From Moniliella sp. 'wahieum' (Eukaryota): 64,000 nucleotides of DNA. The notes below the pieces were generated by a model. The model searched no databases and was not told the DNA's origin. It was given only the letters and a program-made list of their open reading frames with translations. Location of the stretch: the NCBI GenBank assembly GCA_003971905.1, contig RSEE01000055.1:372001-436000 (forward strand), read 5' to 3'. Positions 3,785-47,343 of the stretch are shown here, piece after piece (position 1 is the first letter of the stretch; each line of letters opens with the position of its first letter). The position numbers and the translations under genes were made by a program.

Positions 3785-6252
3785 GGGCGGGGGGAGGGGG
3801 GGGAGCGCGTCGCAGTGGGTCGGTGGCGGGGGAAGAGGCCGTGGGCGCCGTCGGGGATGGAGGGGGGAGGGGAGGAGGTGGTGGGGGCAGGGGCAGGGCA
3901 GGGGCGGGGCGGCGGTGGCGAGGCAGCAGGCGTGGCAGGCGGCAAGAAACGCGCTGCGCTCGGCTGGCTCGGGCAGTCTCTCGCGCGAAGGCTGACGCCC
4001 AAGCGGAAGCTGAAGCAGCCTGAGCCTGGCGAACAGCAGCGCACGCCGCCGCCCGCTCACCGGTCGTCACCGCTCACCGCTCAGCCCAGGGAGCGTGTTC
4101 CGCCCCGCCCCATTCCGCCCCTGGCTGGCGGGGAGGCAGTGAGCAGCGCAGGGCGTGACGGCAGCCGCCCAGCCGCCAGCCGGGTAGATAGTACGCGTGC
4201 ATTCCAATCTGGCCTCGCTTACTGCGCTTACTGGCCATCGAAGAGGCCACATCGTCGTGATCATGTCGATGATGCACGAGGAGGTGGTGCAGGACGAATG
4301 AACCATCTCTTCTGTGGCGGATGCCATCGATGCAGATCCACTTCCAATGGAGGCTCTGGCTACGTGAGCCGCCAGGGACGCGCATCCTTGGACAAGGTAT
4401 GGCCCTTCTCTCTCTTGCCTTTGTGCCCCACAAAGGGGTGCGATGGGCATTGGTAACGTTCCACTCTATATATGTGTCGGCGCGGAGCCCACGCGAGCAA
4501 ACAAGCTCTCCCCGTGGTGACTATCAAAAGGAGAATCAGCCACAGGAGAGGGAAAACAACAATATTCGAGTGCTTACGCGGGCGCTTCCGTTCGGTTAAT
4601 TGTTGTATCGATCCCTACGGGACCACGGCCAGCTCTTCAAATTGTACGGCTTCTTGATGTTGAGCCATCAGGTGGCTCGTGCTGTGGCCAATGTCCCTTC
4701 AGTTCCTCCTCAGGCCTAGGAGTTCCGTTGTTTTTCTCTCCTGTTTTTCCTTGTTCCGCAGCTTAGCCCCTGTGGTGGCGACTCGCTGCTTGATGTTCCT
4801 CTGTAGGCGTTGCAGGTTGGCTTAGACAATCACCACCACCACTAGTGCGATTGCATCACCCTCGAGGACCATCTGGACTCCAGGTCTCATCACTTGACGT
4901 ATAGCAGAGGCGGCTGCAATACCAGTGTGGCAAAACTGCGTGTATGCACCGGCTTGGACGGTAGTAACGTGGCCGAAGCCTTCGGGGCTCGGCGCCCAGG
5001 GAAGGGAAGGGGCAGCGAGGCATCAACAGTACGAGCCTGAGAGCTGGAGCATGAGCTGGGCTGGGACTGCGGGCGGCGTGGCTAGAAGGGGAGCCCATTG
5101 CACGCTGCGGGACTAGACCATTATAGCTTTCGGCGTGACACACGACGCGTACACACGCGAGTTGGGGGGATGAGAAGCTGAGAGCGAGATACGGGAGCTG
5201 GAGGACGAGGTCGAGGAGCGGACGAGCAGCTACTAAAGAGGAGAAGTTGCCTGAACTGAATCAACTGGCGGAAATGGGCAGGGTAGTGAACAGAATAGGC
5301 GAGGAGGGACGAAGAAGGGGGGGGGGGTGGAGACGCCAATAAACCGTGGGGGGAAACCCACGAACGATTGCTTGCTCACAGGGACAAAACGAGGAACAAC
5401 ACAATAGAGGAAGAAGAACGGGGGACGGGGGTAAAAAAAGGGGGAACGGTTGTCGTGCGGGAATGTAGAAAGGCAAGGTAAACGACACCCGGGGGCGCAA
5501 CTATAAACAACTTGGTAACCTCGCTGTGGCTACCGACTTCCATGACCAGAAGGCGACGATTTTCGCACGGAAAAACGTCCGACTGGTGTTCTCGCGTTGG
5601 TGTTTACGCCGGGCCTCGCGATCTCGGATCCGAACCGATTCTCACGCGCTTTACTGGGCACAAGTATCTCATCGGTAATCTTCTACTCCGAGGAGGAGAC
5701 AGCATAACTGTTGGTCATCTTACCGCCCTTCTGGGGTCGGGGTTAGGAAGGCGAAGGGAGTTCTCCGCCAGGATGATAGCCAGCCCATCTTCGCCCGTGC
5801 TAGACATGTGACAACAGCCAGGCGCTGAGATAGCGGATCGAGTCGATGGGTAAGGCGCAACATGCAAAAAGACGCTGTATCAACTGACGGGCATAACCGA
5901 CCTACAACGCGTGCATATCGGTGGAACGTGGACAAGACAGATCGGTGCTTATTAGTTACTCTCACCGTCGGGGCTCAGGCGCTCAGGCGCTAAGGCGATA
6001 GAGACCAGAATCGAAACTACTACCATGGCCAAGGGAAGCAGCAATCGTTCGGGGGAAAGCCACAACAGAGAGGACAACAGGGCGCGAAGCGGAAGAATAG
6101 GGACAGGACGACACGCTGTCAGGACAAAGATTCTGGTAAGGGGGGGCGAGATGAGCCGACTATGGTCATCCTTACGAGCTACTACTACTTACTAGTCACG
6201 AGTGCAGCTAGCATGTGGCATGTGGCAGGCCATACATCATGTGCCTGTCACG

Positions 6253-6294
6253 CATCATGCATCATGCATCATGCATCATGCATCATGCATCATG
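6253..6294. repeat. (CATCATG)x6 heptamer tandem repeat
   Basis: Six perfect copies; longest perfect example I found of the intergenic xyTNAy'x' heptad family. Confidence 0.95.
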
Positions 6295-8701
6295 CATGCC
6301 ATGCGACATGTGACATGTGAGCGCGAAGGAGTGGTCCGTCGGCTGAGCTTCTCGGCCTCGCTGCACCACGCGGGCATCACCCATTCTGCATCATGCACCA
6401 GCCATCCATGTCTCGCCCGACACGAGGAGCTCGCGCACCGATCGTCAGATCTCAGACCTGTGACATGTGACTGAACGTTGAACACCCTGAGGCTGAGCCG
6501 CCAAAAAAAGTGCCTCTGGCTTTCCGCACGCACCAGATTCCACTTCCACAGCGCAGCAGACGACGCCCACCTGGCCCAGCACCGAAAGGGCCGCCATCGG
6601 GCGCGATGCGACCGCCACGGCACCCAATCCAACTCGGCAACGCGTCCGCACGTCAACGCGTCAACATCCGATGGACTGTCCCATGTCACATGTCGCATCA
6701 TGCATCAGCGCATCAGCCGCGAGGCTCCAATGGAGGCCGCATGGGTGTTGAGCAAGGTTGCGCGTTGCGCTCAGCGGCTCAGCCGCTCAGGCTCAGCCCC
6801 CTAGGGCTGTGTTTCGGCGCAGAGGAACTGAGCGGTAAACCGGGACCACGTCGTATAGAGTGGAGTTGGGCCGGCGTTCAGCGTTTTCTCAGATTCACCC
6901 GAAACCCTCGCGCAAAACCCTCAGGCCTCACTCAAAACTCCGTGGGCCATCGGATTATCGCGCGGCGCGCAATAACCTTGGGCAACATGGTAGGCAAAGC
7001 TCCATGAAGCCAATCAAGCAGCCCAAGCAAGCCCAAAACCCAGAAGAGGGTTATTACTTTCACCATTTACATGGATAATTACATGGTACTTTTGCGTTAC
7101 TCTAGGTGTCAACAAGTCAACGTGTCAACGCTCAGCTTGTGTGGCGGCCTTTTCCGTTGACGCGTTCGGCTGAGTACAAGCTAATTCATGTTCAGGCGCT
7201 CAGGTCCTGAGCCTCAGGCCTGGAGGCCCGATGCATGATGGAGATGATCCATTGCCGGAGGCCGGAGGCTTTAAGAAGGGCGCCTATACCCGACGCGCTG
7301 ACGACCAGTGCCTACGCGCTGCTGCTAATGTTGAAATTGTTGCTCAGTGCACGGTGATTTTGTTCGAGGGTACCCGGTTACTCCGGTTACTGACTAGTGA
7401 CGGGTAAGACGAGTGTCGAAATGAACACCAACGGGGAGCCAGCGCGTTCTTCAATAACGTTCTCAAAACGTGCGGTTGAAAAGCACATCCAACCTGGTCC
7501 AAGTACTCGACGTACTCAACGCTTCTTCTCTGGTTCACCGTTCAAGCTCTGGCGATGTGTGCCAGGCTCCATGGGATGGACGGATGGGACTAGTTACTAG
7601 TCCTGGTACTGCTGTGGTGTCGACAGCCTCATCGATGATCGATGGTCGATGATTAATGATGATTGAAGGTGGAAGAGACTAGGCCAGACAAGGCCCAGGC
7701 CCTAGGTCGCACCTAACATGCTGACACTGCTGGCGTGCCCAGGTGCTCGATGGGGACGGGGACGGGGTGAAATGTGCATTTGTAAAGCATTGCATGTGCA
7801 TGCCGCATGCCGCATTCTTGCGCTGTATTGGGCGGGATGGGATCGAGCACCCTCCATCTGCCGCGCAGCGCAGACGGTCTTGTGTGGGCTGGCGGCTGGC
7901 GTGTGCCATCGGGATGTGACATGTGACACGCGCATTATGCAGGAGGTACTTTGCAGTGCTTTCCCGGTCGCATACAGAGTCACACCAAGTCATGTGATGG
8001 ATGGGCACCGCAGGTCCCTCAAACCCAGCAGACGCCGACGGCAGAATGCACCACAGTGGCCGCATGCATCCGTCCGTGTGATGATGAGCAAACCGACCCC
8101 GTGCTGGATGTGCGAATGCTGTACGGGGGCACTGTCCCAGGCCGCGTTGCCGCTGCGTTGCCGTCGCGTGCCGCAGTCGGCCGCAAGCAGCCCGGCAAGG
8201 CTCGGCAGTACGGCGGCCACCGGCCAATGCCAAATGGATGGGGCTTGGCTCGCGCGGTAGCCTGCCTGCTGCGGCCGCCTTGGTTGCCGCGCACGCTTCT
8301 TGGCCAGGCACGCGTGACGCGTGACATGCGGCGCATGCGACATGTGACGCCTGGGCGCACCATGCATCACATGCATGTCACACCCACAACTCCAGGCGCC
8401 GGCGCATGAGTGTCGCGCGCGGGAGTCGTGCGCCCGACAGCTGCCACGCACGGGTCCTTCCTGTCCAGGGAAGCGAAGAGTTTGGGGCCTGGGCCTCAGG
8501 GCAGGGCCCCAACCGCACCACACTCGCCCCGCGCCCTGCTTGCGCATGTGCGCCAGCTCAGGTGCGGCGTATTCGGTGCCTTCGTAGACGCCCATACGGA
8601 AAACATTATCCCCCCCCCCCCCAGTCCAAGCAGCACGCCCCCGCCCCTTGTTTCCGCCCCCACCACCGCTAGCGTTTCGCCCCGCCTGCCCCTCCGCCAC
8701 G

Positions 8702-13184: not shown

Positions 13185-13743
13185 GATGGTCGATGATGCG
13201 CCTCGTACGCCACCGACACGCGTGGGCGACCGGCACGCGTGACTGAGTCACTCCTGTAATCCTATTCTCTTTTGTACATCCTCCCTGCGTCTCTGTACCG
13301 ACTCGTTCCCCTCTATCCATCCCCCCCCTTTGCACCGTGACAGTAACGTGGGGCAAACCAGGGGGTTTGTTGCTGTCGGGGAATCATCGATCAGTCGATC
13401 AGTATTCAATGGTTCTACTACCCGACAGTGGCCCAGGGGGCTGCTGGCAGGTAGCACACGTGTAGGTGCACGTGCCGGGTACTAGAGTCGTGAGATCTGA
13501 GAGCACTGAAAGGGCCTGTGTGCTCGTGGTCACGAGTTGAGGACCGAGGACTGAGTCCCAGAGACGGGCAAAGTAAGCGGGGCCCGTATAGGCCTAAGGC
13601 TAAGGCCTGCCAGCTGAAAGTTCAAAGTGCTCCTCCTCGTCCGCGGACAGCCGCGGCGGGCCGTCTGCCCCCTGCAGCTCCAGTGACTAGTGACTAGTGA
13701 CTACTGACTACTGACTGAGGCTTGAGGCGCGAAGCTTGCCTGG

Positions 13744-16523
13744 ATGCTCCAGCCCCACCCCCACCACCAATGTGCGCCGCCCGCCAAGAGCAGCCTGGCG
13801 ATGGCCTGCCGCACCCCCGCCTCCCCACCACCCGCCCCGCACTCCGCCTTTCCTCCGCGCCCTCCACCCGCGTCCCCCTCGCTTGCCGCCGCCCTCCCGC
13901 CCCCAGCGCCTGCCTCCCTCGCTGCCCCTCCCCCCCGCCTCCCCTCAGCTCCCGCCCCCCCCGCATGCCCCTGCCGCGCACCCAAACGCACACTAGGCAA
14001 GCGCCGCCGCCCTAAGCGCGACGTGTCGGGTCCCAGCGCCTCCCCTCCCGCTCCTGGCACCCGAGGCCTGGCTCCGCCCGAATCATCCGGCGGAGACGAC
14101 AAGTCTCCCGGCCCCACTTGTGGCCCGTTGCGGCTCCTCGCCTGTAGCAACTGCCGTCGACGAAAGCTCAAGTGCGACAAGAAAACCCCGTGTGGGGCTT
14201 GTGTCAGCCGGAATGAAGCGCGGGAATGTGCGCTGGAAGAAGGCATGATTTTGCCGTATGTATTCCCTTGGAACTTGCCCTTGCCCTCACCCTCCATGGC
14301 CCCTTTGCTTGTTCCGTCTTCGCGACGGTGTGGAACGGCGTGCTGATCTTTCTGTGGCGTGATTACAGTCCCGCAACGGAGCCTTCGCAAGACTCCCTCC
14401 AAGATCGACTAGAGAAACTCGAGTCCCTTTTGCTCAAGATCACAGACAAGGTGATGCACCAACCAGCGGAGCCCCGCCCTCCCGGCCGACTGGAGCTCAA
14501 CGTTCATCTAGGTCTGCCCCTGCGGAACAATCCCAGTGGGTAGGAGACGGAAACGGAAACACACAGGAAACAATACGGCCCCCGGCGAGGAAACTAGCGC
14601 CCAAGCGCAGGCTTTGATCACCCTTATGCGTCCTGATTCTAGCCTGCTGCATCCACCCAGGCCCGATCCAAGATTCTTCGTGAAGCTCTCGATCTCTACC
14701 CAGATGCGGAAGCTGTGCGAACGTGTTGCTCTGTTTATGTACGTTTCCCCTCCCACCATCCTGCACTTTCTCGATGAGCGTTAAGTTGAACTCTGATGGT
14801 GAATTTCTTCGTATGTAGTTCAAAGAAGCCGATGCCATGCTCCCCGTGTCAATGAGACCAAGTTCTGGCGCCAGTTCTCGAAGCACGAGGCGTTCATTCG
14901 CCGTTTCGCAACCACGAAGTGGTGTGGAGCGAAGAGATCCGAGCTGAGACGACCTTTTTTGCATTGGTCTTGGCTGTGGTGGTGGTGGGACTGGTGCACT
15001 CGTTGGATGTACAACTTTACCGCAAGTTTCGAGAGCGGTACGAGACGCCAGTGCCGATTTTTGTCCATATGACTTTTCGCCTCTTGTTTTGTTGGACCAT
15101 AATGAGCGGCCGACGTTGGATAGCATCGCGTTGGCTTGGTCACACACCAAATCTTGCTCCAGTCCCGTACCTCTTGGGCCCCCAACATCTTCACTGCCAT
15201 TATGGCCCAGGATGCATTTTTGATCAGCCTACAGGCCGATCCACCACAGGGCTGTCCCAACGACGTGGCCCTGGACGGATCAGCCTCTGGGCCAACATTG
15301 CTTTGCTGGAATGGTTTAGTTCTATCAAGATGGGCCGTGCCTCGATTATCAACTGCGACGGCTTGATGGCCACGCCTTCGTTCCTCTATTCTCAAAGCAG
15401 CTGGGACCAAGCCAGCATGGATGGACCATGGTCTTATTTGCACAAGTACCGTTTCGAGCTGGGCCGGATCGCCATGGCCTCAATGCGCCGCGATGCGATG
15501 GGGGAGGAAGAGTCGTTTGAGTACACCCTCACCCTCCAAGCGCGGCTGGACAACTTATTTGAGGTGATGCCTTTGCGGCTCAAGGAGGCGCTCGAAGACC
15601 CTTTCAACGAAGGGCGTCGCTTGGTCTCGGTACTAATCATTGCGCGTTCCATGCATGCATGGCTCGAGATGTTTTTACACGACGTCACTATTGCCGCGGC
15701 TGGACCGATCCCAAGTTCAGTATCTCGCGCCAGACGTTTTACCAAGCTGCCTTGTTCTTTATTTCGACGTTTCTCGAGTACTGGAACGACATGGCGCGTC
15801 GGCACCAACTCAGCCCGGCTAGCTTGCACTCCGATACCTGGCCTGACATTGCCCCTGGCCTCTTATTCCGGCTCTCCCCGCTTGCCCGAACCGCATTTAC
15901 GCTCGTGGACCAGGTAGAACGCCACATGGGCCTCGCGCGTGCTTACCCGCACATGGTATCTGACCAAGAACGTGCTGAACACCCTAAACTTCTCCACTTG
16001 ACCAACCAGATGAACCAGTTGCGACAACAGTTCCCCCCCTCTTCTCCTTTGCTGATAAGGACGATTCCGACACGATGGTTCCTATTATCCCTCCATTGCT
16101 TCTTTGCCCACTGTGCAACTGGATAACGACCCAGGCACAGATAACGCCTCCACTCACCCAATACAGTCTGTTGATCCGTCCGTCAACACCACCTTGTTCC
16201 CCGGTGCGCCTAGCGCTAGCATCAGTGCGGCTGGTGCGCCAGCTGGGCCGGCTGGTACGACGACAAGTGCGACTAGTACGCCGGCTGCTGCGACGACAAG
16301 TGCGCCTAGTGCGCCTAGTGCGACTAATGCGACGGCTGGTGCGACGACAAGTGCGACTAATGCGACGGCTGGTGCAACGCCTATCGCTCCACTGGACTTG
16401 GAGACGTTGTTGCAAGTGCCAGTGCTGCAGCCCATGTTTGGCAATGGCGGTCCGTACGACGATAACACTCGGTTGTCCATGTCGTTTGAAGATTTGCTAC
16501 TTGCCTTTAATCCGATCATCTGA
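13744..16523 (+). CDS. Zn(II)2Cys6 fungal transcription factor
   Basis: ACSNCRRRKLKCDKKTPCGACVSRNEAREC at ~14140-14230, followed by coiled-coil LQDRLEKLESLL. Introns ~14256-14369 and ~14739-14818. Middle region is frameshifted; Ala/Thr-rich C-terminus. Start codon uncertain (13744 or 13801). Confidence 0.85.
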
Positions 16524-17948: not shown

Positions 17949-20900
17949 CAAGCCCTCTGGGACTGCTTGGGGCAGAGGCACGGCTGGAGCAGGGAGTGGG
18001 ACCTCACTGCTTGTCCTGGGTACAGGAAGGGATGGGGGGGCCGGGGAGCAGGCAAGGAGCTGGCTGGGGGGAGGCCGCGGGGGGCGCGGGTGGGTTGTAA
18101 CGTGGCAAAGCAGGAGTAGGCTGATGCTTGGTCCTGTCCACGAAGAGACGGCTGTGGGGGAGAGCACGAGAGGGACAAGTTGGGGTCACTGGTGCAGAGT
18201 TCGGCGCTTGACGTGACCGTGTGTGGAAGAAGGTCATAGGAGCTGGGAGTGTGCTGAACCGGCGGCCAGACGGCCGGGGGGCAGGGGGAAGGAGTCCCGG
18301 AAGAGACCGGAGGTGAGGGGTGGGCTGGGGGCGAGTGGGAGAGGGGCGCGTGGGGGCTGGTTGTCAGAGATGGGAGTGTGCATGATCGATGTTGGTGGTT
18401 GGGAGAAGAGCAGGGGGTTGGAGGCAGGGGGCGAAGGGTACTGTCGGGCCAAGGCGAGGCGCGTCTGGTTGATATTTAGTGCATTTGCACGGCCCTTCTC
18501 CAACACTCTTTCTGAGAGGCTATAGGATGCGGACAGAGGCGGGGCATATAATGGTTGCACGTTGCGCAGCCTGCCGTGGGGTAGCAAGGGGCGAAAGGGC
18601 CCCTATGTATGTGCCAGCATCATCACTAATATGATCGAAGTACAAACACACAGCCTACTACGTACGAACCGAGGTGAAGAGTGATGCAAGTGATGCAACC
18701 CCGTGAAGTTGCAAAACGGTGCAAGTAGACGCAGCACGCGCGAGTACCTGAGTACTACTGAGCTCCAGTACCCTCCCAGCACTCAGTCTGAGTACTCAGT
18801 GAGTGTCCACAGTGGTGACATACCTGTGACATCGATCATCCTGATCCACCACATCCGGATCTTGAGGCGACGCCGAGGCGGGGCCGAGGCGGAGCAGAGC
18901 GTCCAAACAGAGACTCCCAAAAGGCAGAACCGCCCAGAGCCGACCAACACGAGCGGTACAACAGCGACATGTGTGGGACATCATATACAATTCCGTCGGT
19001 CCTCGCATCACAGTATTTTGCACCTAGTACGCCCCTTCCAAGCTTTTCTCCGCTTCCCGCTTCCATGTACCACCAACCGCTGCTCTGTGTGCTTTTGCAG
19101 TCTCTCCAAAGTTCCCCATCGATCCCCATAATCGTGCATCGGCCCATCCTCGACATCGATCATCGGAGTCTCCTGAATCTGCTATGCATCACACATGCCC
19201 GCGACGACCGGCTACTTTTCGGGGCCTGGCGGTCGGCGGCACTCTTGTGCTCAATACGTGCCTCAGCTGAGGCCTCAGCCTGAGGCCTCAACGTCTCAAC
19301 CACAACACACTTGTAACTCTCATCGGCACCTTCAACGTCAAAAGCATTACATATACCCTGGAAATGCGCCGCAATTCAGCGGGATTAGGCGATTAGGAGA
19401 GTAGCAACATAGCTACTAGTACCACCTAAAATTTCCTAAAAGCCCGACAACAAGTCACTATAGTGACTTGCCCTCTTGTGCCTCTACCCTTCTGCTTATT
19501 GCAACCCTCGACAACTCCGCACTTGCCCAAGTCCCTTGGTCTGAGATCTGAGTCTTGAGAATTCCTCAATCGCTCATCGCCTCAGGCCCTCAGATCTATG
19601 AGAGCCGCTGAGCGCGAGCGGGCGAAGGCCAGCGGCGCGACCACCAATAACACATGCAACGCCGAGCTTGGCACAAGCCCCTCGGTCTGGGATATGTCAG
19701 GGATGTCGACGAGGGATGTCGATACGTCTGGATGAGCGCGCAGCTGCGCGCTACGCGCGAGCGCGAGCGCGAGCACCAGCTTGTGCAACTTGGAGCTTGG
19801 CACAAACCCTCTCTGACGTGGTGTCCAGCGTGGCGCCCCAGCCTCCATCATGCATCGTACATCATGCATCGCTAGTCACACCGAGCACCGACCCCCGAGC
19901 ACCGATCAACACCGAGCACCGACCACCGACCGCCGGTATGTAGTAAGACCTAAGGCTCAAGGCCCAGGGGAGGACCAAACGAAACGCAGACACCATCCAG
20001 CATCGGGCCCCTTTCTCAGCTAGTCTGCTACAGCTCCAGTGAGTACTGAGTTAGCCCGGGGCTACGGGGGGCAGGGGAGGAGAAAGAGGCTCAATACATA
20101 GTGCGCCCCATGTGTCATGTCTGGGATATGGTGCATGGCGTCTGTGACATGTGACATGCCACATGCGACTTTGAATGGATGGGACATGGGACATGGGATT
20201 GTCTGATGAGTTCGATCAATCATAGTGACCCTCTCGATCAGATCACCGATCACCAAGCATATCTCAGATCTGACCTCAGACTACAGAGATTCATATGTTC
20301 TCGTTCAAGTTCAGCGGTGTACACTGGCCTGCGGCCTGAGGAGACACGTTTTCTGGACCAGGTGTGCAAAACAGGTTAAAAAAGCCCCAAAGTAGCCGCG
20401 CCACATGCACAATACTCCGCGTACACTTACGTACCATCGGAGCCGCGCTGGGCCGCGCTAGGCTGCGCTGCGCCTCTTTTGCGCATCAAGCTTCAAAAGC
20501 TTCAAGCTTCAAGCTGGCTCGTTTCCTTAACCTGATCTCAGACCCCGCGAAACGCCCCACTCGACTCCACACTTATCAAGGTCACTAGGTCACTCGAGGT
20601 GGTGACATGGTGACCAAGTCGGGTTAGGCCTTAGGCCTTAGGCCTTAGGCATTCGTACCCTTAGTAGGGTCAGTTGGCTTGCCTCCTGTTGCTTTTGGTC
20701 TGTGCTCCAACACGCCACAACTGTGGAAAAATTGACTCCACCGGGCCACCGTCGGCACCACTTTTTTTTTCAGATCTCAGACTGAGATCTCACCGGTCAC
20801 CGGTCTCAGATCTCACCCCAGCCTGTCAAATTAAGAAGGGGGTGTGGACCATCACATGTCACACAGCCACGGCATCACTTTTACTGGGTATCATATAATT

Positions 20901-21828
20901 ATACCAAGCACGTTCGCTCCCGACACCATGTCCGCCTCGGATTTTCTGGATTCTCGACAACCATAGGTTTGAAGATGAAGAGGAGGCAGCTAAGTGGAGA
21001 CGAGAGGATGGCTGTATTGAATCAAATGGCCGGAAAGGGTCAGGAGTTGGACAGGACGAGAAGGGAAAGTGGGGAAAAGGATCGCCACTGATCGAGGATG
21101 CTGACTGTTCGCTGTCCCTTTTTTGGTAACCCCCTCCTAAGCCCTATCGCACTAGCATGGCTGTTGACAGCACGAAGCAGACGAAGCAAGCGAAGGCTGC
21201 GAAGGCACTAAGAATATCATCCGATAGCACTTCCTCGTAATGCATAACGCAGAACACTTGGTAGCATATACCAGTTTTGAAGAAGATAGGACAATCATTT
21301 TTTCTAGTTGTGGTACAAATCACATATTGGGTTACCGAACCCTGACAGCGTTGGCAGCAGTAGGTCCACAAGCGTGCAAACCCGACCTTGAGCAACGCCT
21401 GTTGTTGTTTGTCGAGGCGCTTCGCACCGAGATTGCATCTGTCACGGGCTGCGGCGGACTCGAGATGGTCCGACCGAAGCTAAGGCCCGCCTGCTCCGCA
21501 CATGCCCAGTAGAGCGTGCTCCGCAGGCCAACTAAGTGCGATGATGGTTGGCTAAATTAAGTATCATGGCCGAAGGGCCATGCTCCGCGCGGCAATAGTC
21601 GCCTCCCGCCCAAGTCCAACAAGTCGGCCGGCCTAAATAAGGCCACCGAGCTTCCAGTGCCGTGGCGACGTCTGTCGCCCCGTCCCCGTTTCCTTTTCCT
21701 TTCTCGGTCGCGCCTGCGGCGACCACCCCGCTTTTGACATGTCTTCCTTTCTACACCCCCTCTTGTATCCGTTTCCCTTTTGATCCTGCCTGTACCCCTG
21801 GTTGATGGGGATCTTTTCCCCCACCTTC

Positions 21829-21893
21829 CATTCTCGTCATCTCTCGTCCCCATTCTCGTCATCTCTCGTCCCCATTCTCGTCATCTCTCGTCC
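21829..21893. repeat. 22-bp tandem repeat (CATTCTCGTCATCTCTCGTCCC) x3
   Basis: Copies at 21829, 21851 and 21873 (the last lacks its final base). Confidence 0.9.
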
Positions 21894-27230: not shown

Positions 27231-27368
27231 TGCCCTCGCCGGGATTCGAGCCGCCGGGGCAACTAATAACTTGTTCGTGCAGTGTGTAGTACAGTTAGTT
27301 CCTCGTGATCGAACCCGATGGTCAATGGGAAACGTTGCGCCTTAACCACTATTTGATCCCGAGTGTGC
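27231..27368 (-). other. tRNA-like / Pol III element (degenerate or long-intron tRNA)
   Basis: Minus strand has A-box-like TAGTGGTTAAGGCG, T-arm-like GGCTCGAATCCCGGCGAGGGCA at the 3' end, then T-rich sequence. I could not complete a cloverleaf. Confidence 0.35.
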
Positions 27369-29400
27369 ATGAACTCATGAACGAAGGGGCAACGAGACGA
27401 AATACTTGAGGGGTGGAGTTGGAACCTGGATCGGTCCACGCTTAAACTTGCACCTTCAAGTCCAACAAGTCCAACAAGTTCAACGAGTCCAACCTTGGAA
27501 ACTGTAGCTTGGTCGAATTTCCCAGCCGAACCGAGGTGGGTGGGGTGGGGCTTAGCGCTTAGCCTTTACTAGGGCACATAGGAAGGGCCTATATAGGAAC
27601 CTCCTACGGCAACAGCAGACATCTATCTGCATCCCAAAACTACCTATAGTAGTTCGGACCTCGTACCTAGAACCTAGCCACTAGCCACCACACGTCCCGC
27701 ATCACGCATCATGCACCACTAGGAATTGCTTTGGGGACCATTATGCATTGCATTACCGGATACCGGTTACCCATTGCATATTGCACCCAACCCAACGTCC
27801 AACCAAACCAAAACCCAAAACCCAAAACCCAAAGACCCTGGCCGGGCCGGGCGAACCGCCGGAGACCAAGCGCCAACGAGGCCCGAGGCACGACGCACGA
27901 CGCAGGTCCAATCGATCATCCAGATCTACGATCTAAAATCTAATCCAGACGGGCCGATCCCCCGCGCCACGATACCAGGTTACCACTACACCAGGAGACC
28001 ACACAAGAGACCACACAGGAGACCAGCACCACCGGTGACTCCGGTGACTAGTGACTAGTGACTGGGAATTAATTGCTGGTACCCGGTACCTCGCCGCACG
28101 CGTGGCGCCCGCGCTCCTCCCCCCTGCAGTGTGGTGCCCAGTGGGGTGGCGGATGGATCGATGGTCGATGATCGAGGAAGCAGCGCAGTGGCTCGGTGCC
28201 AGGCCCCAGACGACACGCAAAGCAAAGTAAAGCAAAGCAAAGCAAAGACCGCCGAGTTGGACGGTGGCTGGTGGCTGGTGGCTGTTTTCTGCTGGCTTGG
28301 GGGCTGGGGGACGTGTAGGTGCGGGCAGGTACCCGGTACGGACCAAGCTCCCAGCAGCGAGAGTCTTCCCGTCCCGCGTCCTGAGCGCCCTGAGCGCCCT
28401 GGGCCTCAGGTGCGGGTGACCGGTGAGGCCGTGAGGCCTTAGGCTGAGGTTTCAGTTGACATGAACCTGGGCGGCGCAGAGGTACTGAGTACGTGGAGGC
28501 GCAGTAAGGGCTAGGGTTGGCGTGTCGATCCTGGCGATCAGCATCATGCACCACCCATCATGCATCAGCGATCCTTCGATCCCTCGACCAGGGGGGCGCC
28601 AGAGCAGAGCAGAGCACACCCCAGCGCAGCAGGGCACACAGGGCACAGCAGGGCACAGAAGAACACGGCAGAGCACGGCAGAGCACTGCCCACTGCCCAC
28701 CGAGCGCCGAGCGCCGAGGCGCAGCGCTTGTGCTTGTGCTTGCCGGGTACCCGCGGACGCTGGGCACGAGCGCCCAGCAGGAGCGCACTCAGGCGGACTA
28801 CGATGTCTGATCGGTGATCCGTCGTCTCACAGTACTGGTACTGCACTGAGGTACTGAGGCCTGGCCTGGAAGCTGGACCGGCCGCAGCAGGAGTAGGGTT
28901 ACTGGTTACTGGTTAGGCCGTGGGCTGGCGTACGCGTGGTGTGGCGCGTGGGGCTGGTCACCGGTCACCGGTCAGCGGTCACTGGTCAGCCGAGCTCAGC
29001 GGGGCGCCTTGCTGGTCGCCAGGGGGCGCGTGAGCAGCGACGGGTGAGCGGTGAGCATGGCGCGTCGTTTGTCGCTGGCTGCGGCCGTGTGATGCGCTGC
29101 CCCGATCAGACGAGCAGACGGTGTGGTGGCGGCGCGAGAGAGAAGCGAGAGAAGCAGCGCGAGTGCGCAGGCAGTACGCAGCACGCAGTACGCAGCACGC
29201 AGTACGCAGCACAGTACACTGCACACTGCACACTGCACGCACCACACCGCACAGCACACCGCAAGAACACAGTCACTAGGCACGCAGTACACAGCACACT
29301 GCCCGCCGCTCTTTCCCCCCCCTTTTCCCACCCCCACCACCGCTTGCCACCGCCTGCTTGCCTCTGCTCTGCTCTGCTCTGCTCCCCTTGCACCACGCAC

Positions 29401-31715: not shown

Positions 31716-33177
31716 TGTGACGGACAAGCAGGCGGGGCAAAGGGCAAAGCGCAAGGGCAAGTGCAAGGATAGGGCAAGCGATCAGCCGTGTCTGGTACCT
31801 AGAAACTGTGTGTGTGGGGGGGGGCGATGTTTATGTTGCAAGCGGGGTGGGGGCAGTACGGTGGGCCAGTGGGAAGGCTTAAGGCTTAAGGCTTAAGGTG
31901 AGAGGTGAGAGGTGGGGGCTAGGAAGGGACGGGGAGGATGGGTGGATGGATGGATGGCGTGCGGCGGAAGATGGGCTATGGGGGTGCTGTGGAGAGGGAT
32001 GGGATGGGATGGGATGGGATGGTGTGCTACCTGGATGGAAGCAGGTTGGCCCTGGCCTGGGTCCAGGTGGAGATCGGGCCAAGCGCTAAGCTTTAATTAA
32101 GCCTTACCTTTAAAATGTTAAACGTTAAACGTTAAGCTCCAGCTGTAAGCTTTGAGCAATTTGAGCTTTAAGCTTGAAGCTTGAAGCTTAGGGACGGTGG
32201 CGCGGGCCAGCAGCGCAGTTGGAAGTGAAATTGAAATTGAAATTGGAATTGCACGTGCCTGCTATGGTGTGCGAAAAATGAGTGCGTGAGTGCGTGAGTG
32301 CGTGCGCCTGAGACTCAGGCCGCTCAGGCATGATGCATGATGGTGCATGATGCATGATGGGGGCAGGTGCGCAGTGTCGACGCACCGCGTCTTGGAGCTT
32401 GAGGGGCTGGGCTTGCGCTGGCCCGCTGCGCAGCGCATGGGCACACGCGCAGGGCGCAAGTGTACCATGGCGACATGTGACGCGTGTGACGTACTGAGGT
32501 ACTGAGCTCAATATCCAATCCACTCCTCAGACTGAGGACGGAGTTGCTGAGTTGAGGCGTTGAGGCGTGCTGAGCTCAGCCTGAGCGCTGACGCCACGCA
32601 CTGGCTCAGTGTGTCCTGGTCCATACTGCATACTCCATGCCGATGCCGATGCAGGGGGGCCCGCCGAGGGGGCTGGCTGGACGTAGCTTGCAGGAGGCAG
32701 GAGGCAGCAGGCAGCAGGGGGGGCGGGGGGGCAGTGTGCGGGTGGCTGGGATCATCGTTCGAGGATGGAAGATGGGTGATGCCTTTGTGATGCATGGGTG
32801 ATGCACGATGTCGATGCCTTGTGCCATCGGGGCGGGGGGCGAGTGTAGGGCCAGTGCAGCCCAGCGCTGGGCGGCGGCGGGCCGACGACAGCCCGGCGTC
32901 CACGGCCTCGCTACTCCGACGGGGGGGGGGGGGACGCAGAGACCCAGGGACCCAGGGACTGGGGACGCGGCAGCAGCAGCACAGCGCATCCAGCATCCAG
33001 CATCCAGCATCCAGCATCCAGCATTGCCCTAACCCACCACCGCTAGCAGAGGGGGGAGCTAGTCTGCGCTCGCATCTACTTGGTCTGCGCTTGTCTCCAC
33101 TCGTCTCTACTTGGCCTCGCTTGCCTGGCCTGTTGCTCGCTTCTCCTGCCCTGCCCCCTCCCCACCGTCCCCCCGCC

Positions 33178-37181: not shown

Positions 37182-40100
37182 AGTGTAGTGTGTAGTGAAG
37201 CGTAGGTAGGAGGCGAGAAGAAGAGAGATCGAGATCTCAGAAGAGAAAAAGGTGAGGGAGAGAGGGGAGAGACGGGAAAGATGATCTAGAAAGTGGTGAG
37301 GGACAAGAATATATATAAGTGACTGTCATGATGCGTGAGACCGTGAGGCCGTGAGAGCTTCCCTGAGGCTCTGGGGCGTCACGCGTTCATGCGCCAACGA
37401 GATCTGAGAGCGCAGGCAGCAGCCCACTGGCCCAGCCATAGTCAGCATGGGCCACCCATCGGACAAGAGAGATGGGGTGAGGCGTAAGGCGTGAGGCGTA
37501 AGGCGTGAGGTGTGAGGCGTGAGGCGTAGAGTGGGGCTGTGGTGGGCCAGGCGGGTCAGGCGGGCGGAGATGTGGGCGCGGATGCGGATGCGGGTGCGAG
37601 CGCGGGTGCGGGTGCGGGTGCGGGTCGGATGGGAATGCTTATGCTGGGCATCAGGCAGGGTCAAACGCTAAAACGTTAAAACGTGAAACGTGGAACGTTA
37701 ATATTTAATCGAAATCTCTTAGATTTTAAACCAGGCCGGGTCCGGGCTTCTCTGCTTCTCTGCTCGTCTGGGCGTCTGTGGGTGCGAGGCCTGAGGCCTG
37801 ATGCGTCCTGCCGCACGGATACGCAGTGAGTATTGATGCTCCGAGGCCTGAGGCTCAGCCGAGGGCGCAGGGGGGGGGGGAGGAAGGCCTCAGGCTTGGA
37901 GCAGCTTTGGTATCAATATTGACTGACTGGTGCTTTGCTGCTGTTGCTGCCGAAGGCGGTGCCGACGACGGCTACGCGCCACCACGACGTGCTCACCGGT
38001 CAGCGTCATCAGCTGCACACCCACGCACAGACCACCCCGCCATCCACCATCGACCATCTCATCTCATCTCATCTCATCTCATCTCATCTTGATCATCGAC
38101 ACCGAACACCAAAACAATCATTAATCAGCGTCAGCATCCGGACTGTGCATCAGTGCATATCAGCACTGTCACCATGTCACCCTTGAAGCTAGCTTTAGGC
38201 TCCCGCAGGCTCCCGCGCTCCGCGCTGCCGCCGGGATCGGGACGATGGGTAGGGTCTGGTGGGGCCGGTGATGCCGGTGATGCATGATACATGATGCAGA
38301 GGCAGGTGCAGGTGCGTTTGCAGTCGATAGTCACCCAGGGTTACTAACGATGGCATACTCCCCCTCAGGCCTCAGGCTCAGGTCTCGTTGGTCGTCACCG
38401 GGTCACCACAGTCACCTGAGGCCTATACTAGCTAACCCACCACCCGGCCCTAGCTCCAGCTCCAGCGCTCGCCTTACGCGTTACGCCTTACGCCCAAACC
38501 TCTCTCTCATCAAAATCGCCCACCAAGGTGTACTAACTAGTGCTCAGTACTCTCTGTACCATCTACTCAGTACTCACACTACGCCTACTCATACTCACCC
38601 TCAGCTTCACCGGCACTGTCGCCCCACCACAGTCCCTTGCCATTCGCCAGCACGCCACGAGCCAGTATGCATTGTGCAGTATGCAGTACCCAGTACTGGT
38701 TCCCTATTAGTGCATTGGCGCTTTAGCCAGTACTTAGTACTTAGTGCTAAGCCTATAGCCAGCGCTTAGCCACATTATGCATTCCCCACTGACTCCTCCT
38801 ACCGGCTACCCCTCTCCCGCGCGCCCTTTTGCTCCCGCTGTTTTCCTGGGGCCCCGCACTCGGGAAAACAAGCTCAGAAGAGTTAATAAGGCTACCTGAC
38901 CACCGGTGATCGGACGGTGAGCGAACCCAGCAGACAGGATGAATCATTAAATCATTAATCATGCATCATGCATCATGCATGGCCATCATCAGCACCTCTG
39001 ACATTTGCATTTTACTATGGACAGCCCCAACACCGCAGCCCATCATGCATCACAGTCCACAGCAGTGTACCCTCGCCCGTCTCTTCCTCCAACCTGCAGG
39101 TCCCACTCCCTCGCTCCCAGAGTTGCCAGCGGCAGGTCGCCGTGGGGCTGATGGATTTCGGATCATCGATCAGGCAGCCGCTGCTCAGTGCACTCTGTGG
39201 CTCACCGCTCAGGCGACTTACCACCACATATCGATAGCCATGCATTATGCATCAGTGCATCAGTCTTCTTAATTCCAGTGTGGCGCATTTGCATGATGCG
39301 ATTGAGAATTGATCTTCACACGCCCCACGCCCACACACCCACACACTCACCGCCTTAGACCTCACCGCCATCCCCTCTTCTCCCACCGTATCGTGTTCAA
39401 GTCAACCGTAGCATCTCGTAATCCCCTACACCCATCCACACCTGGCTTGACAGTTGACCGTCGTTGAGCCGCATCATCATCGTTTCTCCTCTTCTGTTGA
39501 TATCTTCTTCAAGAATTTCATAGCATATATCAGCAACCTTCACCACTGCACATATATCTCTTGCTTTCATCGATCATTAATCATTGACATCCCGGTTGTT
39601 ATTAATTGTTGTTCACACATCCATGATTCATCTCATCTCAGTAGTACACTCAGTACTCAGTACTCGGTCGATCGCAGATCGCAGATCGCATGCCGTGTAC
39701 CGTGCGAATCTGCCCCCCTCTCCCCCCCCTCTCACGCCACTCAGTGCTCACATCTCTGTAATATCTTTCTAGTCATGCTAGTCATCCATTTGATCGATCT
39801 CGACGTCGGCGAAATGAATTGAACCAACATTCGCTTCAGCGCCTCGATATCATCAGTCAGTACTCAGTCAAATGTAGGCTAGTTGCTCTTACTTTACCGT
39901 CATCACCTTTCTGATGTACCACTACTGTGACTAGACTACCACTCTCTCACCCGCACAGGTCACATTACTGCCGTCTTCAATTTGACTCGCCATTCATGCA
40001 CCATATTCATGCACCATGCTCGAAGGCACGCTTGCACAACCACCATCAATGAAAGATTCTCTTCGCCCAGCTTCTGCAGCTACCTTCTCCTAAGCCGCAA

Positions 40101-43100
40101 ATCTCTGTATCATCTATGATGTGAACGACTATATAACGTTGAAGGTTCAAGGTTGAAGGTTGAAGGTTGAAGGTTGAACCCGCCTTTTGCTGAACGGCTC
40201 CTTCGATGGAATCCAACCTTCTGCTTGATGCTGGCTGGGTCAGTGTCTCATCTCGATCATTCTTGTGGTTCTTGAGAGTTTGGATTACGGAGGTTGCTGA
40301 CAAGCCCAAATTCACCACAATATATTAACGTTTCTTTTGCTGTACGAAGAGATTATTGTATACCCTGTCTGCCTCTCATCTCCACCCGGTCTCAAAATAC
40401 CTAAAGCTAACAGTTCTATTCTCTCTTCTTAGGATACCCACATTACCAAATTCCAACCCTCAACCCGCAACCCTCAAGCTTCAAATGAAGCCGCCCGATA
40501 ACGTATAGGTCCTCTGCTGAGGGAGCCTCACTAATTATTATTGAGAACAACTTGAGGGTGGAGAGCCAGCGAGGAGAGAAGAGGTCTCTCTGCTCTACGA
40601 GCTTTGTGCGACTGCTCGCTTTGACTACCATTTATAGTTGCTACTGTAATTTTACTACGCTGCATTGCTTCCTCTTCACCTGTACTAGCCTGTTTGAGTT
40701 TTGACTCTCAGCTGAGCCTCAGCGCTGAGCCTCCGAGACACGTTGAAAAGTGCCGTCACTCTGTCACTCTGTGACTCTGCCAAATTCTGCTCACACGTTT
40801 GTGCCCCCCCACAAAGACGGAGGGGAGAGTCTGGGACATGCCAGAGGTGACAGTCTACGAATAATTTAAGGGCACTGGCGACAGCTCATATATCCTTCTT
40901 CTGTTGGTGCTGTTTTGTTCGCATTATTCGTGTGGCCTACCTCTTGATGGAGGAAGAATGGAGTGAACCCAAGGTGGGCGAGCGAGGCAAGAAGAGAGTC
41001 AGGTGGACCCACATTGAGACGATCAGTAGGACCAGCAGCAGCGTTTTTGATGATGTATTGGGACGCAGAGGTCAACCAATACCCCCCCACCCAAAACGGC
41101 ACACCCCGGGGAATATAGCAAGACTAACTAATAAAGGGGAGTTGGCATCCTGGAAAGGGAATCTCCCTGCAGATGGACATGGTTTATTGATCGTTGATAG
41201 TAGTTCTTCATCCAGTCTGTCACCCCTCTGGCTCGTCGGGCAAGGGGGGGGGGGGCGAGACCGGGCGTATAGACCCGAAACGTGGGCTTCGTACCAAAGA
41301 ACTGTCCTTCTGCCTGGTTACCGGTATTCTGCTGTACTGAGTCCTAGCGTCGGAGGCCGATGTTGAGGGAGGATGTAGGACAAGGCGATCGGCCGCTTGC
41401 CACAATCAAGTGCATTCTTGTTCAGAGGGGTGTTTATCTAGGCAGGCAATGTTCCGTGAGCTATAGGATGCGATATACTAAGCTGTGGTCCGTTGCGAGA
41501 CCACATGCCTGAAGCGCTGAAGGTAGCCCCCCCCCGCATGAACGCACCCACGGAGCACCGGCTATCAGAAGCCGAGAGAGATGAGCGATTGTAAGCGCAG
41601 CAGCGGTGCCAATGGTCGAATTGCCCTGTGACATGTGACACCTTCTCTACAACATAGGTTACAGGCACAAGGCGCGGATCAGAAAGGGAAGATACATATA
41701 CTGATTATCGATCAAAACCCCACCTCTCAGTACTGTGCCTTCATGCTGGAAGAGTTGGAAGAGGTGAACGAAGAGTGGACCAAAAAGTTTCTGCAATATC
41801 CATACCAAAACGTCTGGGTCTGGCACGGTTTGAGGAGAGGGGGTTTGTCCCGCTTCTCTAGTGTTCATGTAGTTTTGGGTTTTGGATAGGGACCAGGACC
41901 AGGACCGTAAGGAACCGAGTACTGAGTCTGAGTCTGAGATCATCTCAGCCTTAGAATGAGGACCGATTGGGGAAAAGATATGGACGCTGCTTCGTTGAGA
42001 TGGATGATCGATTATCGATTATCGATTATCCCGTAAGGAGATGCCCCGGCCAAATGTTGTTCTGGAGTCAATATTCAGTCCATACGTGGTGTGCAGTGGC
42101 GGCAGGTACCAGGTGGTGACATGGTGACATCTCAATAACCCAATGCCGTGACACAAAAGCGGCGTCAACACGTCAATCGCACGGGACTCTCGATAACGTT
42201 GTTAAGTACGTGTTCACAGTTGAACGTGGAATGCTAAGCGGCTCATCAGGCTGGGCCGTGGCAGTTACTGTTCAAGCTTCAAGGTACAAGGTACAATATT
42301 GGTCCACCGGCTGTCCACCAAGAGTATATACAGACAGACACAATGTCGTAACCGCATCCGGCAACTATTGCCCACATGGAAGCCGCCGGTACATCGTCGT
42401 AACTATTAACACGCCATAGTACTCCCCTGCCTGCAAATGCCTCCTTCAATTGTTGTCATGCATCTCTTGTCGATCAACCTTGCTCTTTCTTCGTAGGCGT
42501 TGGGCGGCTGAGCCTCAGCATCAAGCTGCTGTAAGCGTCAAGCTTCGAGCTTCAAGCTTCAAGCTTCAAGAGGGTCCATGATCGAATCCAGCATCGAGTT
42601 CGCGGAGGAGTGTACGTGGAAGCAGAGGCTGGCGCTGAGGTGCTGAAGAAGCTTGAAGCCAACAATGGAAGCGGATAGTCGTCGATCAGCAACAATTCAG
42701 ACTGGCATGCGCCGGTTGTCCGCATTCCAGGCATGCACCGCGCTGCCCATTCCTTTATTTTTTTTCAAACAATGGCTGGCGACAACGCAGCGAGCGAGCA
42801 CAGTCCTCAGCAAGTATACCACGCGTGATGTCACACATACTTTGAAATTTGAACGTTGAACGCCCGCCATTGACCATCCCTTTGCATCGCTCCGCCACGT
42901 TACTTACTCCCCCAGCCACCACCGTTATCTGCGTTCAATGGAACCATGACAACGAAGCAGCATCGACACTGTCGATCCGATCGGTCATTCTGCTTGTTCA
43001 GGCAACCCCAGTTCTGCACCCTTGGCCCCATGGACCAACACCCAGACCAGGAAGGGTTTGTGGCATGAGTGTATGAGAGAAGCCGGTGCCACACACTCAT

Positions 43101-43569
43101 GCCGCTCTTCCTCCGGCCTTTCTGGAACAGGAAGATCTTGTGGAAGGTGGGCAGGATCGCTGTGACATGTTACATGTTACAGGAAGAGTGCCCAAACAAG
43201 TAGGATCTGCATCCTGTCCAATCGAATCGTCCAGGCCCACACTCTAGCCCTTGCCCATTCTGGCCACAAAAGCCCAGAGCAGACGCATTCCGATCAACAT
43301 TATTCTTTCCTTACATGCTACATTTGGATCTCAGATCTCAGATCTCACCAGAGGACTGCGCACAACAGACGCTCCTACTGTGTGTTCCTACCTGTCGCTT
43401 TGCTACAACAGGCATGATGCATGATGCTCTTCTCTGCCACTGCTCTCCCTAGGTATAATCAAGAGCAAGATACTCAGCACAGCAGCAGTGTGGTATACCT
43501 ATCTATGGTGGCATCTCATACTACTGCCCCGCCTTAACCGTATGAACTAGTATCCAGGGTGCCCAGCTG

Positions 43570-43577
43570 TATATAAA
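43570..43577 (+). promoter_or_regulatory. Putative TATA box for the secreted repeat-protein gene
   Basis: TATATAAA about 155 nt upstream of ATG 43726, followed by a pyrimidine-rich leader. Confidence 0.45.
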
Positions 43578-43725
43578 CCAGGGCCTATGTGTGGTCCTAT
43601 TGACTCTATCTTCATCATCTCTTCTCCCCACACCCCCACCACCCCCACCACCCCCCTCCTTCACTTACCGCGGGCACCTCTTCTTCCCCCCCACTCTTTT
43701 CCCTCACGGTATACGCTCTTTGATC

Positions 43726-45333: not shown

Positions 45334-47343
45334 AAAATAACCTACTGTCATCTTATTGATGTCTCTCCCTCCCTCCATTCGGGCGGTTCCGTTGCAGCAA
45401 GAAGTCGATCACCCGACTCGACTGTGTGCATTTCGGCCCTCCCACCCCCACCCCCTTTTTCACATCTTGGGGGCCGAGCTGGTTCTCTGGTCCCTTCAAT
45501 TTCTTTGTCTCTCGTTTTCCGGATCCCCTTTCTCCTCGTGAACCTCCCTCTCACCTCCCTCTCTTCTTTACCGCCTTTTCCTTCCGTTGTCCCCTTGGTC
45601 CTCGTCTTGTGTCTACTATCATTTTCATGAGCTCTTTTCCCTCTCACGTTCTTCATATTGTTAGGTCGAGCTCTTCAGTTCTCAGTTGGTATATAGCTGC
45701 CTTCCCCCTGATTGCATCTCGACCACCTCTTCCCCTACTGCCTTGCTCGCCTGCCACTGCCACAGCGATATAAATTGCGTCTTTTCTGTATGTTTATGCC
45801 CCGTGTTTGATTTCCTAGAGACGATCATTGAGATCAATCATCGAATGTATCAATGCATTGACCACTGTGATGCAATGTGTGACCAATGGTTGGTCGATTG
45901 ATATATTGGTCGGGCGAGGATGGAGGCCGCTGCGCTTTGGGGCTGGGATCTGCTGGGAGACGGGCAGGAAGCTTGCTGTGGGGAAGCAGGGACGGATGCC
46001 CTACGCCTGTGGCGGCAGACTGGACGGCGGGGGCGGGTGGAGGCGGGTGGAGGCGATTGCCAAGCCTAGGCGGCTTGGCAAACAAGACGCCCGCCCACAC
46101 ACGGCGCAGAGGGGCGCTGTGCTACGAGGATCAGCATCACATGCACATGCATCACTGGTCACCATGCATCATGCATTCCTTCGCACTGCGACCCTACGCA
46201 CTACGCCATACTCAGCACCCGCCCAGACTCAGCCTCGCGCTTTGCCAAGCGAATGCGAGCAACTGCCTCCACACTCGGCTGCTGCTGCACCCAGCACGAC
46301 ACCCGTGTTCCGCAGGCCATACGATCGCCCCTGGGGCTGTCTGCCTTGCTGGGGCAGCAGCCGAGAGGCCGATCCGCCGTGCGCTGCACATTCTCTGTTC
46401 TTGGTCCCTCGTGCACACCATGGTTACTCTGGTCCCAGTACCCAGTCACTATAGCCACGAGCCACTAGCCACTAGTCACTGTGCTGGCCATTCCCTCGGG
46501 CCTCCACGCTTCCGCCGTGGCTGGGCGTGCGCAGGCGTGAGCTGGGCATGCCATGCTGGCATACTGGAATGGACGACGCGAAGGGGAGGGAAGACATGCC
46601 AAGGCGGCGAGGCGAATGGGAGAGAAACGCCATGCCAAGGCAGCGCAGCGTGTTGGGCATTGCGAATGCAACCACAGTGGCGCGATACTCGTGTTGAACG
46701 TGGAGACGAGCACATGCACACCGTCTGTCTCTACGCCGCCAGCCACCCCTCCGGCACCCCGACAGCCTGAGCCCCCCACAAGCCTACGCAGCTCGGCCGA
46801 GCGTGGGGCGCTGCCAAGACGCACTGCGGTCGATGATGATGAATCGACGAGGAGCGATCATTGATCGTTGATCAGCACGTACTCAGTATTCAGAACCCAG
46901 TACTCAGTACCCACAATCACCATATGACCCGTATGATCTCTCTGCGCCCAAACGTTAATCGCAGTGCCTCCAAGCTCCCGGAGAGGACTGTCTGACAGGG
47001 CCCCATAGTCGGCATGATGTTTTCCCGTAGCCAGCCTGTCTGCCTCAACGCCTCGCTCCATCCTTGTGCCCCGCACCATTGGCTCAGGCACCGCACCGCC
47101 GCCGCAGCCCTTCTCAGCGCTCAGCCCCCCATCCACCTCCCGCCCCGCCCCGCCTTTTCGTCTGACACCTTCGTCCTCATCCGTATCTGTATCCTTATCC
47201 CCATCCCCATCCTCACCCCCCCCCTCGGGCCCCTCCCACCAACCACCGCACGCCCCCCTCCTCCACTCTCCTTTCACTGCCCGCTGTCCCCTGCTCCACG
47301 ACAGCCTCTCGGCTTCGCATTTCCCCTCCTCCGCCTTGGCACA

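Follow-up and report, generated by a model that had tools for sequence, protein, structure and literature searches.

Tandem TNA-centred heptamers in intergenic DNA of Moniliella sp. 'wahieum' as candidate excision footprints of a cut-and-paste DNA element

The non-coding DNA of a 64,000-bp stretch from the fungus Moniliella sp. 'wahieum' (GCA_003971905.1, contig RSEE01000055.1, positions 372,001 to 436,000 of the forward strand; hereafter the window, numbered from its first base) contains many 7-bp odd palindromes centred on TNA and repeated in tandem. We consider it reasonably probable that these heptad tandems are the excision scars of a cut-and-paste DNA element, expanded afterwards by slippage. 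We write xyTNAy'x' for a TNA-centred heptamer palindrome, H for a heptamer nnTNAnn, and p for a P nucleotide. The products H-p-H, H-pp-H, and H followed by two P bases in place of the first two bases of the next copy are all present in the sequence. The most frequent is the last one, xyTNAy'x'xyTNA. Within it lie one perfect TNA-centred heptamer palindrome and, at the joint, a palindrome of 4 bp; the 7-base register is kept.

Results

Period-7 tandems and the TNA centre

The window holds 89 exact period-7 tandems with two or more copies, compared to 3.2-5.0 in Markov simulations (orders 1, 3, and 5). A reverse-complement-symmetric rotation exists for 37 of the 89 units, with 0.4-0.8 expected. 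Thirty-four of these symmetric units are centred on TNA, and ANT, CNG, and GNC account for one each. At periods 5, 6, 8, and 9, symmetric units make up 32 of 123, 15 of 87, 3 of 27, and 0 of 21, respectively, all of them chance fractions; among the periods compared, the symmetry excess is restricted to period 7. At lags 7, 14, and 21, TNA has autocorrelations of 2.63, 1.73, and 1.61, respectively. The lag-7 values of the other centres are 1.64 (ANT), 1.17 (CNG), and 1.14 (GNC).

A sequence-only reading of this DNA had pointed to seven non-coding islands (14.6 kb together) as the place of these tandems, and we used its islands throughout. Inside them, 194 of 812 TNA triplets (24%) lie in 7-bp palindromes, as compared to 6.5-7.5% for the ANT, CNG, and GNC centres and 8.3% for TNA beyond the islands. 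The islands hold 62 period-7 arrays, 31 of which are TNA-palindromic. These represent 31 of the 34 TNA arrays; the remaining three (35145, 35299, and 59933) lie where no Pfam domain was detected. A control contig of 20.8 kb from another eukaryote with similar GC content (L002) had three period-7 tandems and no such pattern.

The checks that the reading had proposed, for an excess over a Markov background, of TNA over other odd palindromes, and for a period-7 autocorrelation of TNA, all turn out positive in these counts. Its estimate of at least 12 of the 16 flank pairs agrees with the 12 that we counted in tandems; as single heptamers, the full set of 16 is present. As the y base of the flanks, C was counted 131 times, G 88, A 85, and T 64 times. 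All 13 examples that it quoted were recovered, none displaced by more than 5 bases. Twelve of them are period-7 arrays; GCTGAGC at 40711 is a single heptamer within a chain of CTNAG words.

Intact duplications with inserted P nucleotides

The tandems form part of a wider family, whose simplest members are two copies of a non-palindromic nnTNAnn heptamer set apart by 1-2 bases. Exact nnTNAnn repeats with 0, 1, and 2 inserted bases were found as 47, 16, and 11 pairs, respectively, compared to 0.05-0.2 in simulations. In 10 of the 11 pairs with two inserted bases, the insert is reverse-complementary to the adjoining end of one of the copies (chance about 0.19 per pair). The same rule holds for 14 of the 16 one-base inserts (chance about 0.44 per pair) and, among exact pairs with three-base inserts, for 3 of 8. 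Markov-3 simulations gave 0.2 (two-base) and 0.15 (one-base) such pairs in total. Pairs centred on CNG and GNC fit in 0 of 5, 1 of 14, 1 of 7, and 2 of 8 cases, at or below chance. The two copies in the H-pp-H forms lie 9 bases apart, as predicted for no loss plus two P bases. The following sites, all on the plus strand, come from the exact-pair count unless another basis is given.

5973 to 5987: GCTCAGG-C-GCTCAGG, a 7-bp duplication with one P nucleotide (the insert complements the adjoining base)
7376 to 7391: GGTTACT-CC-GGTTACT, an intact 7-bp duplication with two P nucleotides
18680 to 18695: AGTGATG-CA-AGTGATG, a duplication with two P nucleotides from the left copy
28034 to 28049: GGTGACT-CC-GGTGACT, continuing into an AGTGACT array at 28044-28063 (also period-7 listing)
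28380 to 28395: CCTGAGC-GC-CCTGAGC
32151 to 32166: TTTGAGC-AA-TTTGAGC
32476 to 32491: TGTGACG-CG-TGTGACG
38267 to 38282: GGTGATG-CC-GGTGATG

The heptamers of the intact footprints are not palindromic and show the original targets, nnTNAnn. At the 27 intact-footprint sites, the outer and central positions favour G or C. Replacement of two bases of the other copy by the two added ones turns such a duplication into the xyTNAy'x' tandem with a 4-bp palindrome at the joint that the sequence-only reading had described.

Elementary products of 12-13 nt

Period-7 runs of 12-13 nt outnumber the full tandems (180 vs. 52 expected). A TNA-palindromic unit is present in 46 of them, with 0.6 expected, and the other centres gave 0, 6, and 0. 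Twenty-seven runs are exactly 12 nt long; 12 have the form xyTNAy'x'xyTNA and 10 the mirror form, 22 of 27 as compared to a chance of 2 in 7. This form with fixed ends fits 37 of the 46 runs once one-base chance extensions are counted. TNA-type runs of at least 12 nt number 80 in the 64 kb. An example is given here.

6309 to 6320, plus strand: TGTGACA-TGTGA, a 12-nt elementary product whose left outer flank matches and whose right flank is unrelated

The hairpin model made a prediction that was set beforehand, namely that cores with two TNAs should match one outer flank only. We scored 61 such cores with the same N by the number of bases (0-2) in the left (L) and right (R) outer flank that match the joint. 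L2R0 was found in 16, L0R2 in 8, L2R1 or L1R2 in 13, L2R2 in 11, and L0R0 in none. In an unbiased test on 105 5-nt repeats at spacing 7, the spacer was the reverse complement of the first two bases in 21 cases and of the last two in 16, compared to 7 and 8 in the controls and 6.6 by chance. Among the other combinations of period and spacer, none reaches a similar excess, and period 8 with a 1-nt spacer alone exceeds chance (10 of 18 vs. 4.5).

Spacing 7 accounts for 78 of the joints that bear a palindrome, spacing 8 for 22, and spacing 9 for 12. At spacing 8, the 4-bp palindrome lies directly beside one TNA in 12 plus 10 of 42 joints, and at spacing 9, where it is never in the central position, in 4 plus 8 of 24. 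At spacing 11 (n = 23), it takes the two end positions five times each and every inner position once or twice. In broken joints, the complementary inner pair survives alone in 24 cases and the outer pair alone in 10, as expected if P tracts begin at the joint.

Flank symmetry and its probable origin in repair

Among 48 arrays with TNA in the unit, both flank pairs are complementary in 34, one pair in 11, and neither in 3. An independent preference for each half-site, as of a dimeric enzyme, would yield perfect palindromes at only about 7% of sites and is ruled out by this covariation. Therefore, one arm of the palindrome has been copied from the other. The first candidate of the sequence-only reading, 7-bp target-site duplications or excision footprints at TNA-centred sites, gains support from the heptamer repeats with reverse-complement inserts. 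The preference of the enzyme for symmetric sites, which it had made part of this candidate, finds no support: symmetry arises at repair, and two-TNA cores match one outer flank and are unrelated to the other. Covariation examined arm by arm at each site can tell symmetry made by repair from symmetry preferred by the enzyme.

Adjacent units have an identical N in 48 cases and a complementary N in 7. The copies are therefore direct duplicates and not fold-back products, and these counts rule out a rolling-hairpin or fold-back origin of the tandems. Deamination of CNG to TNA was rejected as well, since CNG palindromes sit at baseline without depletion. Terminal-base footprints around a 3-bp TNA duplication were rejected on at least 12 joint palindromes of similar frequency. 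Analysis of run phase in arrays of at least 14 nt gave a weak signal, with ends at a unit edge in 18 of 68 vs. 9.7 expected.

Two layers of short tandem duplications

Arrays in the islands number 32, 23, 62, 14, 7, and 3 for periods 5, 6, 7, 8, 9, and 10, respectively. After subtraction of the 31 TNA-perfect arrays, the counts fall smoothly with period. This remainder forms an unspecific background of short tandem duplications, such as the available part of PMC13167724 ascribes to microhomology-mediated duplication, and the TNA class is an excess separate from it. Palindromic arrays have 2.66 copies on average and other arrays 2.50 (Mann-Whitney p = 0.21). Because the array lengths are equal, the TNA excess is one of births and not of expansion. 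Window-wide, short tandem duplications outside the TNA class are also in surplus (41 arrays at period 7; periods 5, 6, and 8-10 well over Markov), which would agree with microhomology-mediated duplication at a high rate.

Under a purely replicative origin, the arrays would arise by slippage or microhomology-mediated tandem duplication, palindromic heptamers being favoured through small TNA-loop hairpins of looped-out units or flaps. The general surplus at periods 5-10 agrees with this, as does the description of microhomology-mediated duplication as a conserved process (PMC13167724, in the part available). With three or more units, arrays adopt a fold that has a TNA triloop (-3.2 to -12.7 kcal/mol). 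However, arrays of two units do not fold stably (0 to -1.4 kcal/mol), palindromic arrays are no longer than others, and period-9 arrays, which are capable of better stems, are symmetric in 0 of 21 cases. Hairpin-stabilised slippage was rejected as the origin on these three grounds. Furthermore, slippage cannot insert one or two reverse-complement bases between intact copies, nor can it yield 12-nt runs with fixed ends. We regard a purely replicative origin as quite unlikely.

As compared to known microhomology-mediated duplication and microsatellite slippage (PMC13167724; bioRxiv 10.64898/2026.02.28.708716; both available in part), the likeness lies in the symmetry-free background of 5-10 bp and in the growth of scars into arrays, which these processes explain. 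They leave unexplained the TNA centre, the reverse-complement inserts, and the fixed ends. Neither palindromes nor heptamers are mentioned in what was available of the main texts of these two sources. Arbitrary units in pure head-to-tail order are found in 41 non-TNA arrays and not in the TNA class.

Distribution along the window and recurrent words

Examples of the arrays and the islands are given below. Arrays are on the plus strand and come from the period-7 listing. Islands have no strand, and all but the first rest on the domain scan and array counts.

5970 to 8400: non-coding island dense in scars and arrays (sequence inspection)
6252 to 6297: CATCATG array, 6.6 copies, the longest
13682 to 13703: AGTGACT array, 3.1 copies
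18700 to 20900: non-coding island upstream of an HSF-type gene
20624 to 20650: CCTTAGG array, 3.9 copies
27000 to 29000: non-coding island downstream of a short-chain dehydrogenase gene
31900 to 32600: non-coding island upstream of a dual-specificity phosphatase gene
37300 to 43500: largest non-coding island (6 kb), a divergent upstream region
42548 to 42570: CTTCAAG array, 3.3 copies
46100 to 46900: non-coding island upstream of a secretory lipase gene
59933 to 59953: TGTCACA array, 3 copies, beyond the range of the sequence-only reading

The majority of the islands lie upstream of genes, and some words recur amid unrelated flanks (GACATGTGAC at 11 loci, GCATCATGCA at 10, and GCATCATGCACCA at 4). 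Both facts would suit selected cis-regulatory or structural sites of dyad symmetry, bound by dimeric DNA-binding proteins and retained in tandem in promoters. No single factor fits, however, at least 12 tandem units and all 16 flank pairs overall. The non-palindromic H-pp-H forms and the one-sided flanks are without binding-site logic, and scars are also found downstream of a gene, in the 27-29 kb island. Selection of such sites seems to us highly unlikely as the source of the tandems. The structural code read by a chromatin factor, which the sequence-only reading had listed among its candidates, is not needed. The 13-mer GCATCATGCACCA (6388, 27706, 28541, and 32342) exceeds the length that the heptad logic gives, and may be a real binding site.

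Genomic setting and other repeats

The window has a GC content of about 57% and, judged from its sequence, is nuclear DNA of a fungus in Ustilaginomycotina. For the domain scan, 138 open reading frames (ORFs; 16 + 122) were picked from 197 of at least 110 aa and compared to Pfam domains. They bear eukaryotic domains, among them SKN1/KRE6, secretory lipase, MYST/ESA1, HSF, Zn2Cys6, and DBP10. An ESA1 fragment is 79-81% identical to proteins of Tilletiaria, Thecaphora, Pseudozyma, and Moesziomyces, and 86% to one further protein. A metagenome scan for relatives gave eight loci, with ESA1 identities of 39-69%, which were used as a negative control only.

Several repeats of other kinds were observed. 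CTNAG words build perfect palindromes of 10-15 bp in the islands (e.g., 18784-18800, 19264-19290, and 41924-41950), which are possibly long P tracts. At spacings of 5 and 6 bases, their central bases are often complementary; at spacing 6, 10 are inverted and 7 direct. Period-5 arrays with a CNG-centred 5-bp palindrome in the unit number 10 vs. 3.0 expected and lie in islands (e.g., 28600-28686 and 29362-29384); arrays of CAGAG and of CTCTG point towards one another across about 780 bp. A minisatellite at 23362-23881, in a stretch without long ORFs, has 74-77-bp units in about 5-7 copies with about 70% identity. Nested tandem repeats of 33 and 51 bp (87-96% matches), made of CGACTAGTG-like 9-mers, occupy 16247-16383 in or beside the region of a Zn2Cys6-type gene. 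The 22-bp repeat CCATTCTCGTCATCTCTCGTCC is perfect over 3.0 copies at 21828-21893. Runs of at least 10 C or G are present at 10 separate loci (e.g., 5317, 8610, 41244, and 49216), and the word CCCACCCCCACC is present at six loci.

Discussion

A possible route from insertion to tandem array

In the route that we favour, an element would insert at nnTNAnn and generate a 7-bp target-site duplication. Excision would then proceed via hairpins of the flanking DNA, opened a few bases off the tip. Opening off the tip would leave P nucleotides, which repeat the last 1-3 bases of one duplication copy in inverted form, and the broken ends would be rejoined by end joining. The in-register join may be favoured through microhomology, because an inverted nnTNAnn again has T and A in the same places. 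The resulting 5-base repeat at 7-base spacing could serve as a substrate for slippage or microhomology-mediated tandem duplication, which would produce arrays of perfect units. The marks of an excision footprint found in the window are a direct duplication of fixed length, P nucleotides, and short joint deletions around one modal length; the element itself is missing from its 64 kb, in which neither termini nor a transposase were found.

Several other points weigh against an origin by excision. The whole evidence base is one 64-kb window (plus literature). Its 256 inverted-repeat pairs (11-base seeds) include none with a 7-bp duplication. A search of the window for heptamers with terminal inverted repeats gave only one array artefact, and no transposase domain appeared among the 138 ORFs scanned. 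The scar density is very high and therefore requires a very active or long-lived element. To our knowledge, no known element is documented with an nnTNAnn target. The 'switch' pattern of classical hAT footprints, in which the bordering base gives way to its complement, occurs on both sides in none of 53 joints and on one side in five. ANT-centred pairs also fit the P rule (3 of 5 and 2 of 4), and the chance level of the one-base fit is high. Finally, the recurrence of identical arrays at 10-11 loci with unrelated flanks could reflect selection; it can also be explained by target preference.

The same chemistry, a 7-base staggered joining followed by hairpin-type repair, might operate without a free-living transposon, through a domesticated transposase-like nuclease or through other DNA that is repeatedly captured and lost where open intergenic chromatin breaks. 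That the window has neither element nor transposase speaks for this, and so do scars that are very dense and even over all seven islands. However, duplicating both copies requires an integration-like step, 64 kb is too small to infer the absence of an element, and we know of no enzyme of this kind. We think such an element-free process unlikely. Returning to excision of an element, a more specific form would be an undescribed, extremely active (or domesticated) transposase in this lineage that leaves one scar per about 150-200 bp of intergenic DNA. This is conceivable, and we hold it to be rather doubtful.

Comparison with known elements

In duplication size, the scars agree with hAT7 or Kyakuja; the geometry of the hairpin tip is closer to Transib- or MULE-like elements than to classical hAT. 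Transposon footprints are textbook knowledge at single loci, and the consensus of hAT targets has T and A at positions 2 and 7. Elements of the hAT, Transib, and MULE superfamilies form hairpins on flanking DNA (PMC5499845, in the part available). Those of Ac/Ds are opened by host enzymes, and footprints of Ac/Ds, a hAT element, in plants, Saccharomyces cerevisiae, and Candida albicans resemble ours in that both duplication copies are kept, with short joint deletions, P-nucleotide palindromes, and use of microhomology (PMC5873905, in the part available). In contrast to Ac/Ds, the duplication here has 7 bp and not 8, T and A are at positions 3 and 5, and the palindromes are centred between the joint bases and not on the bordering base's complement. 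The scars are also a feature of the genome (about one per 180 bp of island DNA), whereas Ac/Ds scars were obtained at a reporter locus.

Classical hAT was rejected by both measures. Its 8-bp duplication does not agree with a modal repeat of 7 bp, and the P rule holds for the extra base at period 8 in 14 of 16 cases. Its odd-centred footprint would show the switch on both sides (0 of 53); here the bordering base is retained and its complement added. Transib elements make 5-bp duplications. A 5-bp duplication plus two P bases, Transib- or hAT5-like, was discarded since the intact repeats span 7 bases on both sides. PIF/Harbinger elements duplicate 3-bp TNA, and this candidate was also rejected: the TNA autocorrelation is 1.25 at lag 3 vs. 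2.63 at lag 7, and intact repeats have 7 bases. V(D)J coding joints and Transib and MULE excision resemble our joints in even palindromes such as h7 h7' and h6 h7 h7' h6', which there result from the opening of a hairpin formed exactly at the flank end (PMC5499845, in the part available).

Two groups of basidiomycete DNA transposons have 7-bp duplications, hAT7 in Pucciniales and Kyakuja in Agaricomycotina, and the available part of PMC12730594 knows 7-bp duplications in Basidiomycota for these two only. They share phylum and duplication length with the scars described here, and hAT7 belongs to a hairpin-forming superfamily (PMC12730594). Different from our case, neither is reported from Ustilaginomycotina in that part of the source, and no copy was found in the 64-kb window.

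As to heptamer repeats in general, our literature search did not confirm the period-7 repeats of Ustilago maydis that the sequence-only reading had mentioned. Rehm et al. in 2015 reportedly described heptamer repeat arrays of prokaryotes. As compared to those bacterial and archaeal arrays, the arrays here are short, have many palindromic units and P-nucleotide intermediates, and belong to a fungal host.

A full-text literature search found no report of a genome with non-coding DNA visibly made of excision footprints. An excision footprint is a known event; its setting and form here are unreported. The unreported traits are the 7-bp TNA-centred target, a dominant product with in-register P replacement that leads to perfect heptamer palindromes, and a density visible as intergenic texture. 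If the tandems are excision scars, they would record directly, in sequence alone, how an element in a fungal lineage that has received little study chose its targets and had its hairpins repaired. They would also represent a measurable mutational input to promoters that generates perfect palindromes, and a test case for repair products that seed microsatellites. If, in addition, a single very active transposase left them at the density given above, excision footprints would be a main source of intergenic sequence growth. They would supply new dyad-symmetric words, ready-made sites for dimeric regulators, and the intergenic DNA would be largely a palimpsest of the repair products of a single enzyme.

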